Part shown: positions 34,163 to 41,660 of the stretch, piece after piece
How positions within the stretch are numbered: the first letter of the stretch is position 1
Layout: the number at the start of each line of letters is the position of its first letter
NCBI GenBank assembly: GCA_964560005.1
Contig: CAZLKB010000002.1
Span: 128,381-192,380 of the forward strand
From: an uncultured Gammaproteobacteria bacterium
Lineage (GTDB): Bacteria; Patescibacteriota; Patescibacteriia; Patescibacteriales; GWC2-42-12
Length of the DNA stretch: 64,000 nucleotides
Direction of reading: 5' to 3'
Notes under the pieces: model-generated
The model's input: only the letters and a program-made list of their open reading frames with translations
Told to the model about the DNA's origin: nothing
The model's database searches: none
Translations under genes and position numbers: made by a program

Positions 34163-34441
34163 TCACCAAACAATTTGTTTTTTTAAATTACAATTATCTC
34201 GCACCCAGTTTGAGTTAAATTCATATATCTCCATTCTTTTGCCGTCAAGAATATAATACTGCCTATCTTTTCCTCCTGATTTATCGCCGGGCATTTGATC
34301 GTCTATCCATTCGTTGGGGCATATTTTTAGGCCAGAATCGCCTGATTTATTTGCTTCTGGTTGTTTCTGGATGGTATTATTTGCGCATCCCGCTAAGAAT
34401 ATTAGTGTAAACAAAATTGTTAGAATTGTTATTTTTTTCAT
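34163..34441 (-). CDS. Small lipoprotein, unknown function (array gene)
   Basis: Signal peptide plus lipobox FLAGCANN. 92 aa. Confidence 0.55.
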   Translation of the reverse strand: MKKITILTILFTLIFLAGCANNTIQKQPEANKSGDSGLKICPNEWIDDQMPGDKSGGKDRQYYILDGKRMEIYEFNSNWVRDNCNLKKQIVW

Positions 34442-34462
34442 AAAGTTGATTTTTTAATTTTA

Positions 34463-34552
34463 CGTAACGTATCGCGATATCAGACGTCCCAATGAAGCGA
34501 AGCGAATTAGTATGTGGCTTTAGCCTTTACCGATATCGCGTGTTATTGGATG
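34463..34552. repeat. attC-like paired site, unit 1 (90 bp, compact)
   Basis: CGTAAC-GT-ATCGCGATATC (34463-34486) pairs with GATATCGCG-T-GTTATTG (34530-34552). There is a central GGCTTTAGCC hairpin. Confidence 0.6.
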
Positions 34553-34580
34553 AAAATTTATTAAATTTTATATTTTTACT

Positions 34581-35027
34581 CTATTTTTCTAAAATTTTTT
34601 TCAACTTATTTACGACAGCTTTTTCCCATGCATTCATAGCAAACCATCCAATAAGCGGTTTGGCAATAATTCGCAACCACTTTTTATGAATATCCACTTC
34701 GTAGACATAATTGATTTTTGTGTTACCATCCAAATTTTCTAATAATAACTCTTCATGTCCTGATGTACCAAATTTAGAACTCTGATTGTCGGAAATAAAA
34801 CCTCTTTGTGGAAGAATTGTAGTTTTCATTTGCACAGGAAAAGTGGTACCAAAAGATTTCACTTGAGCTTCAATTTCTAGGTTATTGCCTTCTCGTTTTG
34901 TGATGGTGATCGATTCGGCAACTTTAGGAAAATATTTTGGCATATTCTCAAAATCGGTAACGATGTCAAAAACCTTCTCAACGGGAGCTTTTATTATCCA
35001 TGAATCCTCTAAATGAATATGTTTCAT
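34581..35027 (-). CDS. SRPBCC (START/polyketide-cyclase-like) family protein (array gene)
   Basis: 148 aa. The N-terminal IKAPVEKVFDIVTDFENMPKYFP pattern is typical of the SRPBCC fold. Confidence 0.6.
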   Translation of the reverse strand: MKHIHLEDSWIIKAPVEKVFDIVTDFENMPKYFPKVAESITITKREGNNLEIEAQVKSFGTTFPVQMKTTILPQRGFISDNQSSKFGTSGHEELLLENLDGNTKINYVYEVDIHKKWLRIIAKPLIGWFAMNAWEKAVVNKLKKILEK

Positions 35028-35220
35028 AATTTTAAAATAGAATAAAAATTTAAAATTTTAAAAATTTATTTCGCCTAACGTTTACGAGTATCCGAAGTTT
35101 TATTTATTCTACCTTATTATTGTTGATAATTAAAGAATAAATAAAATTTGCGCGGAGCAGATGAGAATAAATTTATAATTTTACCTAATGTTAGCTTAAT
35201 TTTATTTTTTGGATTTTCTA

Positions 35221-35248
35221 TTGACAAAACACCTGTATTTGCTATACT
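35221..35248 (+). promoter_or_regulatory. Strong sigma-70-type promoter inside unit 2
   Basis: TTGACA (35221-35226), 16-nt spacer, TATACT (35243-35248). Confidence 0.55.
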
Positions 35249-35254
35249 AATAAG

Positions 35255-35322
35255 GTCAAGTCCGGGTTGCAATCGGCACCTCTTAAATCCGAGCTCTCAT
35301 TCGAGCGCTCGGATTTTGTTTT
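35255..35322 (+). ncRNA. Candidate ~65-nt two-hairpin small RNA or leader, ending in an intrinsic terminator
   Basis: It lies downstream of the 35221 promoter. Hairpin 1 is GGT..CCG...CGG.ACC. Hairpin 2 pairs AAATCCGAGC (35285-35294) with GCTCGGATTT (35307-35316), followed by TTTTGTTTT. Confidence 0.4.
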
Positions 35323-35350
35323 GCGTTAAAAAATGCTACAATATTTTGGT

Positions 35351-35427
35351 GGAGTCATGGGGCCACCGTTGGTGCGGCTACTCGGACTTGACATTCGGGT
35401 TCAGGGGTTCGATTCCCCTTGGCTCCA
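35351..35427 (+). tRNA. Noncanonical tRNA-like gene (anticodon loop CUUGACA, nominal anticodon UGA; no encoded CCA)
   Basis: Acceptor stem GGAGTCA/TGGCTCC. T arm AGGGG-TTCGATT-CCCCT. Anticodon stem TCGGA/TTCGG (extendable to 7 bp). D stem GGCC/GGCT with an 11-nt GG-containing loop. Oddities: 3 nt at positions 8-9, 2 nt at position 26, and C at position 37. Confidence 0.45.
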
Positions 35428-39037: not shown

Positions 39038-39096
39038 AAATTTTTTTATCTCGTTTTTATAAATCAACTATGTCTTTTTGAAAGAAAATTTGATTT

Positions 39097-39930
39097 TTAA
39101 TTTGGCGAAGGGCAGAGGGGTTGGGGGTGAATGCCCTGAGCCAAATTACTTTGTTTTTGTTCTTGCTGTTGAAATAAAGTAGGACAACTATTATATTTTT
39201 TGATTCGATTTATTATTAGCTTGTGGTAATCTTTGTTTATTTCAAAACCGACATACTGTCTATCATTTGCCAAGCATGCAATAGCCGTTGTTCCCGTTCC
39301 CATAAATGGATCAAAAACAATTCCATTTTTTGGACAACTTGCTTTTACCATTCTTTCTATTATTTCTAATGGTTTTTGTGTTGGATGGTTTTCTCTTTCA
39401 GGGTCTTGAGCATGTATTCTTGATGTACTCCATAAATCTTTTGGATTGTAGCCCATTTCTAACCATTTTTTCCCAACAAATATAGACCTAGTTCGTGCTT
39501 TTTTTGTTTTCTCGTCATAAGGAATTCTTATACTGTCTAAATCAAAATAATAATCATTATCTTTAACAAAAAAACCTATATTATCATGAACGGAAGAAAA
39601 TTTTCGCGTTGAACCACCCATGCTTGGCACACGTCTGTCCCAAATTATTTCATTAACCATTCGTAATTTCTTTTTTAAATATACAAAAATTTCTGGAGAA
39701 TATTGCCAGCTTAAAAAAATGTAAAAACTGCCGGTCTTTTTTAGTTTAGGTAAAACTGCATCAATCCATTGATAAGTCCAATTCAGATAATCTTCAGCTG
39801 ATTTTTGATCTGAATCATTGCCATAATCTTTACCTAAACAATAAGGAGGATCAGTCAATATCAAATCAATAGAATTATCTTCTATTTTATCAATTCCCAA
39901 TAAAATATCTTCATTAAAAATTTTATTCAT
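39097..39930 (-). CDS. DNA methyltransferase, beta-class N6-adenine or N4-cytosine
   Basis: Motif IV LILTDPPY lies near the N-terminus. HPTQKP is present. Motif I FDPFMGTGTT lies near the C-terminus. Confidence 0.9.
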   Translation of the reverse strand: MNKIFNEDILLGIDKIEDNSIDLILTDPPYCLGKDYGNDSDQKSAEDYLNWTYQWIDAVLPKLKKTGSFYIFLSWQYSPEIFVYLKKKLRMVNEIIWDRRVPSMGGSTRKFSSVHDNIGFFVKDNDYYFDLDSIRIPYDEKTKKARTRSIFVGKKWLEMGYNPKDLWSTSRIHAQDPERENHPTQKPLEIIERMVKASCPKNGIVFDPFMGTGTTAIACLANDRQYVGFEINKDYHKLIINRIKKYNSCPTLFQQQEQKQSNLAQGIHPQPLCPSPN

Positions 39931-39932
39931 AC

Positions 39933-40532
39933 CTATTTCAAAATTATACTTTTTGATTTTTCTTTTAACATTTTTAAAAATTCATCTCGTGTCCTATATA
40001 CTTTATCGTGTCTATATGTGGCTTGTATTTTATCATTTCTTGGATTTACATATATTGGCAAAAATTGTGGTGAGAAAACCTCTAAATAATCTTTAACAAA
40101 ACTTATTTTTATATTTTCAAATTTAATACCAAAACAAGCATATATTAAAGTGTAATTTTTATTAACACTGTATTGAAAATAAAGTTTTTCTACCGCAGAA
40201 ATATCATTTTTATTTTCTTTACCTTCGATATTGTGAATTTTTACATTTATAAAATAGCTTTTGCCTTTATAAATAATTTCGCAATCGTGTAGCGAGGTAT
40301 CTGGAAAATCAAAATTAACTTCATCTAAGCCAAGTTTTTTAGCGTTAAATTTAGTTTGTTGTGTAATAACCTGCTCAACTAGCCAACTTACCGATCTAGT
40401 GTGTGCTTTAAGTCCGTAAGGTAAAATTTTGCTATCTGTAATATCAAAACTAGGCAGTATCGTTAGAAGTTTTATGTAAATATTTTTTACAAATTCTAAA
40501 TCTTTTTCTATTTCTTTTATTTCGTTTTTCAT
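39933..40532 (-). CDS. Candidate type II restriction endonuclease (partner of the methyltransferase)
   Basis: 199 aa, ending 2 nt before the MTase start. It has a possible PD...(D/E)xK-like stretch (FPDTSLHDCEI...INVK). The assignment rests on context. Confidence 0.5.
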   Translation of the reverse strand: MKNEIKEIEKDLEFVKNIYIKLLTILPSFDITDSKILPYGLKAHTRSVSWLVEQVITQQTKFNAKKLGLDEVNFDFPDTSLHDCEIIYKGKSYFINVKIHNIEGKENKNDISAVEKLYFQYSVNKNYTLIYACFGIKFENIKISFVKDYLEVFSPQFLPIYVNPRNDKIQATYRHDKVYRTRDEFLKMLKEKSKSIILK

Positions 40533-40570
40533 AATAAAGTTTGGTAAAATTAGCGATTTGTTATAATTCT

Positions 40571-40579
40571 ATTATAGCA
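40571..40579 (-). promoter_or_regulatory. Extended -10 element (TGCTATAAT on the minus strand) upstream of the R-M pair
   Basis: Plus-strand ATTATAGCA reads as TGCTATAAT on the minus strand, about 35 nt upstream of the REase ATG. Confidence 0.4.
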
Positions 40580-40767
40580 AAATTTTTTATAATAATCCAT
40601 TTTCGTAGCGAAGCGGAGAAAATACCTTATACCCCCCTCTTTAAAAAATAAAAATCAAATTTTCGTCGTATTTTAAAGCACAAAACTTGAAAATACCACT
40701 AAGATAAAAAAATTTATTTCATATAACTCCTCTTTATACGAATAAAATATATAAAATTCGCAGTAAT

Positions 40768-40795
40768 TTGTATATTATGCGAAATATGGTATAAT
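40768..40795 (+). promoter_or_regulatory. Candidate promoter of the recombinase gene
   Basis: TTGTAT (40768-40773), 16-nt spacer, TGGTATAAT extended -10 (40787-40795). Confidence 0.45.
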
Positions 40796-40839
40796 TTTTA
40801 GTAAGTAAAGTTTTCTAATAATATTATAGCTTAATATAT

Positions 40840-41660
40840 ATGCAATTAAAAGAGTTGTTAGAGAGAATTGAAAACGAGCTTAAGCTTAGGAATTACAGCC
40901 GTAAAACCATTAAGAGCTACTTGATTTGTTTGACTGATTATTTCCGCTATATTAAAAATGTGGTGAAAAATCCTGATATCGGCCTGATTAAAAATTATCT
41001 TTTGGAAAAGCAGGGTCGGGGGCAGTCTTCGCAGACGATTAACCTTCATCTTAATGCCATAAAGTATTTTTATCGGGAAGTTTTTAAAAATAATATCCCA
41101 ATAGAAATTAAATTCGCTAAAGTATCAAATAAACTGCCGATCGTTTTGTCCAGAAATGAAATAGAAAAAATAATCGGTTCAATCGGCAACCGTAAGCATA
41201 AACTGCTGATCGCCCTAGCCTATGGAGCCGGCCTGAGGGTGAGCGAGTCCATAAATTTAAAAATTAAAGATGTGGATTTATCGGAATTAGTGATCCATCT
41301 TAAGGACGCTAAGGGCGGCAAAGACCGGCTAACCATAATTCCCGAAAGCCTAAAATCAGGGCTGAATGAAATTATGGCCCTGCGCGACAAAAATGATTAT
41401 GTCTTCGCCAGCGAGCGCGGCGGCCGGTTAACCGATCGGTCGGCGCAAAAAGTATTTGAAAATGCTTTAAAAAATGTCATATTAATAAGGAGGCCACTTT
41501 CCATTCCCTAAGGCACAGCTTCGCCACTCATCTATTGGAGAACGGCGTTGATGTGCGCTACATACAGGAACTCTTAGGTCACGCCAATATCAGGACTACG
41601 CAAATTTACACTAAAGTGACTAATCCAAGCTTAAAGAAAATAAAAAGCCCGCTGGACTGA
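40840..41660 (+). CDS. IntI/XerCD-like tyrosine recombinase, interrupted by a -1 frameshift at an A6 tract
   Basis: Frame 1 (40840-41511) gives [51 protein letters not shown]. The -1 frame (41460-41660) gives [15 protein letters not shown]...[16 protein letters not shown], carrying the HxxR, H and Y catalytic residues. The switch must occur at 41469-41475. Confidence 0.8.

Follow-up and report, generated by a model that had tools for sequence, protein, structure and literature searches.

The 64-kb window analysed here (64,000 nt of the 289-kb contig CAZLKB010000002.1, of Patescibacterial origin) contains a tyrosine recombinase gene of the XerA type that stands divergently beside an array of small accessory genes. 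This locus is probably a chromosomal gene-cassette platform that is integron-like in its organisation and most likely in its working, that is built of different parts, and that is shared by many Patescibacteria. A more specific proposal, towards which the evidence leans somewhat, is that an XerA-like recombinase without the I2 helix captures and excises circular cassettes by recombining folded hairpins with a dif-like attI site, in a system that is undescribed and widespread in Patescibacteria. The array in the window itself is probably frozen at present, since its recombinase gene is frameshifted. The main components of the locus are the following:

40840..41660, + strand: XerA-like ('Cand' clade) tyrosine recombinase, a frameshifted pseudogene (open reading frame (ORF) list, profile and homologue alignments).
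40716..40744, + strand: attI-like, dif-like core site ATTTCATATAAC/TCCTCTTTATACGAATA, with a putative crossover at AAC 40725-40727.
38912..40727, - strand: cassette 1, with a leader, a restriction endonuclease (REase) gene at 39933-40532, a type II methyltransferase (MTase) gene at 39097-39930, and site E.
38897..39039, + strand: hairpin site E, with arms AGGCATATCTG / CAGATATGCCT, measuring 122 nt from TAAC to GTTA and containing hairpin 1 (HP1), a TGGGTGA motif, and hairpin 2 (HP2).
37294..38911, - strand: cassette 2, with the transmembrane (TM) protein gene TM157 at 38404-38877 and site D at 37279-38382, whose 1081-nt interior encloses TM124 (37934-38308) and a HEPN-like gene (37355-37876).
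36140..37293, - strand: cassette 3, with a Cys-rich exported protein gene at 36792-37220 and site C at 36125-36710, which contains hicB-hicA (36164-36602).
35080..36139, - strand: cassette 4, with a P-loop kinase gene at 35570-36085 and site B at 35065-35556.
34469..35079, - strand: cassette 5, with an SRPBCC protein gene at 34581-35027 and the degenerate site A at 34454-34554.

Each cassette includes an imperfect inverted repeat consisting of an L arm and an R arm. Motif searches that ignored pairing found exactly five L arms (TAACGT..TATC, starting at 34465, 35076, 36136, 37290, and 38908) and exactly five R arms (GATA..TGTTA, ending at 34545, 35546, 36700, 38372, and 39029), all of them on the + strand, and no true arms elsewhere in the 64 kb. 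The five pairs have a common geometry: TAAC, 4 nt (GTWT), and an 11-nt box on one side, and the complementary box, 1 nt (T), and GTTA on the other. The boxes are complementary at 10-11 of the 11 positions in all five pairs, and each pair has its own box. The asymmetry of the spacers is likewise uniform across the pairs (GTWT versus T, together with a 2-nt AA bulge). Three chance pairs found elsewhere in the window have a different geometry, and profiles built from other genomes alone recovered the window arms and nothing else on either strand of the 64 kb. The generic pattern TAAC-N20-50-GTTA is not enriched in the window (23 occurrences versus 28.8 expected), so that only the full geometry is specific. 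A default inverted-repeat finder did not list the five pairs because their arms are interrupted by bulges or lie far apart. As single-stranded DNA, site E folds with z = -5.1 on both strands, and in the three intact sites folded on both strands, the + strand folds slightly better. Site A is degenerate: its L arm scores 19.9 bits, its R arm is below threshold, and its folds have z = 0 and -1.5.

Much of this had been proposed in an earlier note on this DNA, made from its letters alone. The five TAAC...GTTA pairs described there, the boxes complementary within a pair and different between pairs, and the GCCTAAC and GTTAGGC cores were all recovered, and the folding that it recommended as a check gave structured folds for four intact short sites (z = -4.2 to -6.3), though not for the degenerate site A. 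Its placing of the sites in spacers holds for A and E but not for B, C, and D, which enclose genes; and its asymmetric spacers are real, although they consist of GTWT against T plus the AA bulge rather than of GT or GTTT. The earlier note could not identify an attI, and in this respect, it has to be corrected.

The only window match to a profile made from 54 orthologous loci is the core site at 40716-40744 (29.3 bits). The attI consensus is ATTTCR-NNY-AAC-TCGTT-TATATGCGAA, and the core-site consensus of 64 loci is ATTTCGCATAA-CTCGTT-TATATGCGAAG. In every locus with enough upstream sequence, this core site lies upstream of the ATG of the recombinase gene, at a distance of 111-113 nt in most of the 64. 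Its inverted arms, TTCGCA and TGCGAA, surround a centre of about 6 nt, which fits the two arms of about 11 bp and the centre of 6-8 bp of an XerA-type core site; the left arm resembles the XerC arm of E. coli. Further copies of the arm motif extend from the core site to the promoter of the recombinase gene. In a comparison with L002 (related loci and contigs compared with the window carry L-numbers, such as L001 or L038), conservation begins exactly at the TAAC of attI, and three internal L arms of L002 share with the attI copy the sequence to the left of TAAC.

The attI AAC is also the point at which assemblies break. Contigs L030, L052, L069, and L088 end at it, and many contigs of metagenome-assembled genomes (MAGs) stop 115-450 bp upstream of the recombinase. 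Such ends are the behaviour of an assembly graph where a population has several alternative neighbours, and they suggest strain-level heterogeneity or repeats at that point. Contigs L016, L018, L025, L036, and L057 also end near the attI AAC or within about 130 bp upstream of the recombinase. A scan of metagenomes with the attI-right pattern gave 45 matches, most of them due to chance, and three genuine new loci (L193, L201, and L205); it yielded no alternative first cassettes from the same species. About 60 nt to the left of the attI AAC, many loci (L056, L058, L063, L079, L022, and others) have an R-arm flank, which a GC-rich loop of some 20 nt separates from the attI left arm; perfect complementarity extends over as many as 14 bp (e.g., GTTATGGCGAAATG...CATTTCGCCATAAC). 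Such a structure looks like a site-only cassette without a gene.

The cassettes, which measure 0.6-1.8 kb and have one to three accessory genes pointing away from the recombinase, have exact boundaries. The REase-MTase cassette recurs in L038 (95-1907), the recombinase of which is 69% identical to that of the window. The two loci share a block that begins at the TAAC of L arm E (38908), ends at the AAC of attI (40727), and is 88.8% identical over 1816 nt, as against 68.6% for the recombinase gene, 70.5% for the region between attI and the start codon, and a distal flank that cannot be aligned. A hicAB pair is also present in the L028 array. A prediction about the other end of the cassettes follows if they have been circles. 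The L flank of a hairpin is then part of the adjoining cassette, so the outer flank of the R arm (GTT-RNN-CGA) should be complementary not to it but to the right end of the cassette to which the R arm itself belongs. The R-arm flank indeed matched the right end of its own cassette over the L flank by 23 to 4, with 13 ties (Wilcoxon p = 5e-4). The match is perfect in L201 and L070, and in cassette 4 of the window, the flank ATCGGA matches its own right end. This complementarity of the ends reads as a signature of circular cassettes.

Two kinds of leader were noticed at the right ends of cassettes. In L002/L010, a GC-rich leader of about 195 nt, GGCTTCGGAATAAGCGAAG...GAGCGAGCGATTTCGGCATAAC, occurs at the right end of four successive cassettes (6113-6307, 7739-7943, 8879-9074, and 9701-9910), and its last copy abuts attI. 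An AT-rich leader of about 94 nt next to attI is common to the window, L038, L040, L042, and L070, where different genes follow it. The differing contents of L001-L004, which have an identical recombinase, were considered as a case of cassette gain and loss and then dropped as evidence, because the breakpoints lie inside direct repeats of 190 nt.

The sites were then sought by their fixed geometry in 54 related loci with upstream sequence, and true sites were found in about 35 of these, always on the upstream side of the recombinase. The 65 high-confidence sites all share the strand of the recombinase, the opposite strand having none. Among the 45 unique sites, 37 measure 70-192 nt and are gene-free, and the remaining 8 measure 328-1081 nt. 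The consensus is ATTTCG-NNY-AAC-GTWT-[CnGnRTATnnG]-AW-GTT for the L arm and AAC-[box']-T-GTT-RNN-CGATG for the R arm. In the pair counts of the joined arms, 84.7% of the cells are paired, versus 30-43% when the partners are slid by 1-3 columns, and 12 of 17 inner-helix pairs have changed on both sides. Since this covariation set had been pre-selected for complementarity, strand and pairing were tested again using profiles in which the box was blanked. With these profiles, the recombinase strand carried all of the 72 L arms and 117 of the 120 R arms. Of 67 L arms, 49 were complementary at 10 or more of 11 positions to the nearest R arm downstream of them, as compared to 4.6% of random pairings, and the boxes were of 49 distinct kinds. 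Four intact short sites (E in the window and those of L011, L028, and L062) folded as single-stranded DNA with z between -4.2 and -6.3, and their folds share a conserved interior of hairpin 1, the TGGGTGA motif, and hairpin 2.

Hairpin sites also occur on contigs filed as viral. A scan of these with the L-arm pattern gave 72 matches, which is about the number expected by chance, and real paired sites in seven loci alone; the recombinase was absent from all of the viral-contig stretches fetched. The arrays on IMG/VR contigs are L110 and L132 (IMGVR_UViG_3300038954_000279, 39 kb), L102, L109, L113, L131, and L133, and one such contig has at least seven sites, including minimal hairpins of 45 nt, with small co-oriented ORFs between them. 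Arrays of this kind, in stretches without the recombinase, resemble the state of integrons known as clusters of attC sites lacking integron-integrases (CALIN).

In most of the long sites, the cargo is surrounded by additional perfect inverted repeats of 14-30 bp (24-30 bp in L041, L043, and L089). In the window, pair B encloses a tRNA-like RNA gene, pair C encloses hicAB, and pair D encloses the HEPN-like and TM124 genes. A 15-bp perfect inverted repeat in site C (36158-36172 / 36640-36654) brackets hicB-hicA at the apex of hairpin 1, and a 26-bp inverted repeat in site B (35157-35182 / 35500-35525) brackets the apex of hairpin 2. Because the extra repeats surround the cargo, the latter would lie at the apex of the hairpin and the arms would still be able to meet, site D excepted. 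A long pair in L002/L010 (5267-5660) has boxes that are not complementary and combines a 'D'-type L arm with a 'B'-type R arm; it may be a recombinant or a decayed site.

The regions on the two sides of the array behave differently. In close relatives, the genes downstream of the recombinase (GT2-GT2-NTP_transferase-PfkB-PTAC-Fpg) are in conserved synteny, and an orthologous GT2 gene marks the far side of a variable block. Between these orthologous flanks, 5.6-9.7 kb of DNA have a content that is unrelated from genome to genome and lies almost entirely on the strand opposite to the recombinase. In 32 arrays, the summed ORF length is 17,553 aa pointing away from the recombinase versus 625 aa pointing towards it, that is, 96.6% away. 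An array identical in all relatives, or the same repeats spread through ordinary intergenic DNA, had been named in the earlier note as signs to the contrary; the arrays differ between related genomes, and the arms are confined to the island in the 64 kb. As for the position of the locus with respect to replication, the cumulative GC skew rises to the left of the island as well as to its right, the long ORFs are on the + strand on both sides (with no switch in strand bias), and in 21 of 23 long loci, the local skew has the same sign before and after the locus. The locus thus does not coincide with a switch in GC skew, and this speaks against a terminus dif.

The recombinase had been described as a tyrosine recombinase at 40840-41660, and so it is, except that it is not one ORF. 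An ORF at 40840-41511 is followed by a second frame that ends at 41660 and that carries the HxxR, H, and Y catalytic blocks. The details of the gene and its promoter are the following:

41473..41478, + strand: run of six A residues with a 1-nt deletion relative to intact homologues, the point of the frameshift.
40768..40795, + strand: promoter-like element of the recombinase gene, TTGTAT-16-TATAAT, which overlaps the second TATGCGAA repeat (40776-40783) of the core-site arm motif.

The addition of one A restores a recombinase of 273 aa that aligns without gaps to an intact homologue with 86% identity, and an independent Logan assembly of SRR12133404 (L090) has the identical truncated ORF. Programmed -1 frameshifting at A_AAA_AAT was considered; a mutation is the simpler explanation because nearly all of the listed homologues consist of one uninterrupted ORF of about 273 aa. 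The promoter-like element is kept in the alignments of related loci, and the TATGCGAA repeat within it may reflect autoregulation or an accessory binding site.

In profile searches, the recombinase passes the cut-off of the NCBIfam XerA-type model NF040815 (226.8 versus 220) and fails those of the integron-integrase model TIGR02249 (214 versus 265, with a match in two stretches) and of PRK15417 (139.6 versus 435); it scores lower still with the bacterial XerD and XerC models than with the integron-integrase model. Among solved structures, archaeal XerA (4A8E, 154 bits; 5HXY, 150.5 bits) and Vibrio IntI4 (2A3V, 150 bits) score best, and XerD far lower. IntI4 aligns in two pieces, residues 183-197 of the query spanning 185-242 of the chain, which means that about 43 residues of IntI are absent here, as the earlier note had supposed. 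An additional domain, the I2 helix around patch III, is the defining feature of integron integrases (PMC9668308), and the recombinase, which lacks this IntI-specific domain, is therefore not an IntI. Its N-terminal domain matches Phage_int_SAM_4. The 120 homologues listed are 70-87% identical to it (60-87% in the loci examined), nearly all of them having 273 aa, and there are at least thousands more with E <= 1e-20 in Parcubacteria, Moranbacteria, and other Patescibacteria. Such proteins have been classed as the 'Cand' subgroup of Xer-related recombinases and are presumed to be a substitute for Xer (PMC8138268), which is the one caveat to be attached to the earlier note's reading of a non-canonical integron-like or Xer-module system; attI, the one-directional cassettes, the structured sites, and the boundaries at AAC all speak for that reading. 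No second tyrosine recombinase was found in the 64-kb window. One MAG (JBAQNP01; L032 and L084) has a pair of paralogous recombinases with 70% and 60% identity to the query, each with its own variant of attI (arm TATGCGAA versus TATACAAA/TATGCAAA); this genome may have two platforms, or the bin may be contaminated.

A mechanism can be proposed from the anatomy of the sites. A site comprises an outer stem (TCGNNYAAC / GTTRNNCGA), an unpaired GTWT facing a T, a complementary 11-bp stem of free sequence, and a 2-nt bulge, beyond which the interior has a GTT/AAC inner stem and a variable apex. When folded in single-stranded DNA, such a site would mimic the attI core, with the outer stem taking the place of the left arm, GTWT/T that of the unpaired centre, and the box plus GAAGT, with two bulged bases, that of the right arm. 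One strand would be exchanged between AA and C, a folded site and attI giving insertion and two folded sites giving excision of a circle. The unpaired centre would block the second strand exchange, so that replication would resolve the junction, as it does for the attC of integrons and the attP of the CTX phage.

Several observations weigh against a cassette platform of this kind or against the proposed mechanism. The I2 helix that is missing here is credited with recombination of single-stranded sites by IntI (PMC7790495), the 'Cand' clade is highly conserved, as suits a housekeeping Xer, and the recombinase in the window is a pseudogene. The AAC and GTT cores, 12 or 17 nt apart, are much more widely spaced than those of attC or dif, and the extra bases are on the arm opposite to that in canonical attC. 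In the window, the arms of pairs B, C, and D are 471, 565, and 1083 bp apart and enclose genes, site D has no helper stem, and sites are lacking at the distal genes. Promoters or leaders of their own are present in some cassettes, and one leader is common to unrelated cassettes. No product of recombination was seen, either as a circle junction or as an alternative junction within one population, and the polymorphism of L001-L004 could be due to homologous recombination or to assembly collapse.

These points can be set against other explanations, of which the most substantial is that the recombinase is a housekeeping Xer that resolves chromosome dimers at the adjacent dif, a layout of gene beside site known from XerS/difSL and XerH/difH, and that the 'cassettes' are hijackers of the type of integrative mobile elements exploiting Xer (IMEX) that pile up there via CTX-like hairpins. 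In favour of this, the recombinase scores above the XerA equivalog cut-off and has XerA proteins as its best solved relatives, its clade is very conserved and in conserved synteny, and attI is symmetric and dif-like, with an arm like that of E. coli XerC. The literature, moreover, treats the clade as an Xer substitute (PMC8138268), and the logic of the hairpin equals that of the CTX attP (PMC3442271). Nevertheless, no switch in GC skew or strand bias occurs in the window, and none in 21 of 23 long loci; the recombinase gene is frameshifted in the window; recombinase and attI occur as two paralogous sets in one MAG (L032 and L084); and units of 0.6-1.8 kb without replication or phage genes, almost all of them co-oriented, fit cassettes better than autonomous elements. 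We therefore regard this explanation as rather unlikely. It is, however, compatible with a cassette platform, from which it differs only as to the primary role of the recombinase, and a dual role is possible.

A canonical integron, with an IntI integrase and attC sites recognisable by IntegronFinder, would account for a divergent recombinase followed by attI and a one-directional array, for core sites that fit RYYYAAC and GTTRRRY, for the N-terminal match to Phage_int_SAM_4, and for an IntI4 structure that scores almost as well as XerA. The score of 214 against 265 in two stretches on TIGR02249 and the absence of about 43 IntI-specific residues have already refuted it as to the integrase, and AAC-GTT cores that are 12 or 17 nt apart rather than 5-6, with the extra bases on the other arm, leave it a negligible chance overall; judged by eye, the same spacing makes a match to the canonical attC model unlikely. 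The arms might also be independent double-stranded Xer sites in alternating orientation, as in pdif-like modules, with gene blocks flanked by inverted sites. The genes of the window indeed lie both inside and between pairs, and the L arm as a duplex resembles the attI core with a centre that is 2 nt longer. Yet the L and R arms differ systematically, by 5 extra nt at fixed places; the box covaries within a pair and differs between pairs, which double-stranded sites would not need; 37 of the 45 sites are gene-free and measure 70-192 nt; and homology blocks end at the AAC positions of L arms alone. This makes pdif-like modules very improbable. Hardly more can be said for repeats that are inert or otherwise employed (REP-like palindromes, terminators, or remnants of miniature inverted-repeat transposable elements) in an island that varies by some other mechanism, a view suggested by AT-rich DNA beside a recombinase pseudogene and by the lack of any recombination product: against it, the sites are strictly upstream of one recombinase clade and in a single orientation, an AAC junction is conserved in both the sites and attI, the boundaries of cassette homology are exact, the ends of each cassette are complementary, and the sites have no T-tails on the gene strand.

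The island as a whole (34.1-40.7 kb) has a GC content of 26-36% versus about 40% in the flanks and, in the ORF list of the window, 11 ORFs that are all on the - strand from 40532 down to 34163. Both the AT-richness and the 11 genes agree with what the earlier note had described. The type II MTase is backed by a Pfam match and by PADLOC (453 bits), and HicA with its HicB-like partner, the SRPBCC protein, and the P-loop kinase are backed by family searches; the REase is suggested by NCBIfam at E = 8e-5, which is weak support, and the HEPN label by an Rx4H motif alone, with no Pfam match. According to the family searches and PADLOC, the cassette cargo in the window consists of accessory genes alone, with no replication or phage genes. 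Most 5' regions in the cassettes measure 20-70 nt, and in cassette 1, a TGnTATAAT element lies within a leader of 190 nt; promoter-like matches (46 versus 35 expected) are near chance. The distal end of the island has no arms and no second core site, even at a threshold of 4 bits. The other features of the region are as follows:

35221..35462, + strand: small RNA gene in site B, with a promoter (TTGACA-16-TATACT, 35221-35248), a tRNA-like domain (35359-35430), and a terminator hairpin (about 35437-35462).
34163..34441, - strand: lipoprotein-like gene, 92 aa, the terminal unit, with no recognisable site.
33036..33947, - strand: possible fossil cassettes, with genes for a 194-aa membrane protein (33363-33947) and a tRNA_bind protein (33036-33359).

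The promoter of the small RNA gene has an upstream TG, scores 11/12 in a promoter scan, and directs transcription towards the recombinase. ARAGORN takes the tRNA-like domain of about 70 nt for a tRNA-Ser(tga), without a long variable arm, and the Rfam tmRNA (transfer-messenger RNA) model gives it 30.2 bits, below gathering. Rfam at the gathering threshold had no match in the whole window, and a permissive Rfam scan of the island returned only this sub-threshold tmRNA/tRNA-like match and no family for the sites. The RNA has two diverged copies, both within sites of L010/L002, and no copy turned up in the remaining loci. A tRNA or tmRNA integration site was ruled out for this element, which is apex cargo with its own promoter and terminator and not a flank. 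The region of the possible fossil cassettes has a normal GC content and no detectable sites, and in L070, the first cassette is a 68%-identical homologue of its 194-aa membrane protein. On the other side of the recombinase, a 135-aa membrane-protein ORF (41694-42101, - strand) lies between the recombinase and the conserved GT2 gene; it looks like a second small insertion because in L001, L005, and L008, the recombinase is directly followed by GT2.

No description of integron-like arrays in Patescibacteria was found in the full-text literature searched, which lacks most subscription journals, so an earlier report is possible. What appears to be new is the logic of an integron with another clade of recombinase and another site architecture. 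IntI is thought to have derived from Xer by gaining the I2 helix, a gain that is made responsible for the move to substrates of single-stranded DNA (PMC4792948, PMC7790495). If the present proposal is true, structure-specific recombination of cassettes in single-stranded DNA exists outside the IntI lineage, and an I2-less, Xer-type enzyme tied to hairpin-bounded arrays would be either a living intermediate between Xer and integrons or an independent, convergent solution, which makes the evolutionary question testable. It would also give Patescibacteria, with their small genomes and their scavenging of DNA, a mechanism for exchanging restriction-modification, toxin-antitoxin, and surface genes, and it would explain why MAG contigs frequently break at the locus. 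Tools tuned to IntI and canonical attC are likely to miss such platforms. For engineering, this would be a second structure-specific recombination system, with a free stem of 11 bp.

Compared with integrons, the locus has in common a recombinase gene and a one-directional array that diverge from each other, an attI where the first cassette adjoins, and cassettes that end in an imperfect inverted repeat, the structure of which is kept and the sequence of which is free. The cores (RYNYAAC and GTTRNRY) are alike, the cassettes are bounded at AAC (G|TT), and the first bases past the crossover belong to the next cassette; three unpaired features (a central spacer, bulged bases, and a variable apex), the toxin-antitoxin and restriction-modification cargo, and a fixed chromosomal position with a variable content complete the likeness. 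In contrast to integrons, the recombinase here is XerA-like and has no counterpart of the additional I2 domain of IntI, further arm repeats accompany an attI core that is symmetric and dif-like, the core spacing is 12 or 17 nt and not 5-6, with the extra bases on the arm that carries the crossover, the interior of the site is conserved (HP1, TGGGTGA, and HP2), some sites have genes at their apex, and some cassettes have their own promoters. Patescibacteria are not on the list of phyla with integrons in a 2021 review (PMC8618304).

The pdif modules of Acinetobacter plasmids resemble the array in being small accessory or toxin-antitoxin modules bounded by alternating Xer-type sites. However, pdif is a double-stranded site of a single 28-bp type, whereas the arms here differ by fixed bulges, covary, and are mostly adjacent. 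The XerS/difSL, XerH/difH, and archaeal XerA/dif systems have sites at the terminus, where chromosome dimers are resolved, and to our knowledge, no cassette arrays or hairpin partner sites have been described for them. They share with the locus a single Xer-type recombinase and near-symmetric arms of the core site, and difSL immediately adjoins the recombinase gene (PMC1914069). In the case of the CTX-phi IMEX, Xer acts on a double-stranded dif and a folded hairpin, exchanging one strand in a reaction that replication resolves (PMC3442271). The likeness is in the folded hairpin, predicted here, of two inverted dif-like halves with an unpaired centre. The differences are that, in the present locus, promoter-poor cassettes of one to three genes take the place of replicating phages, many units are stacked in the same orientation, the stem has a free sequence, and the site is off the terminus.

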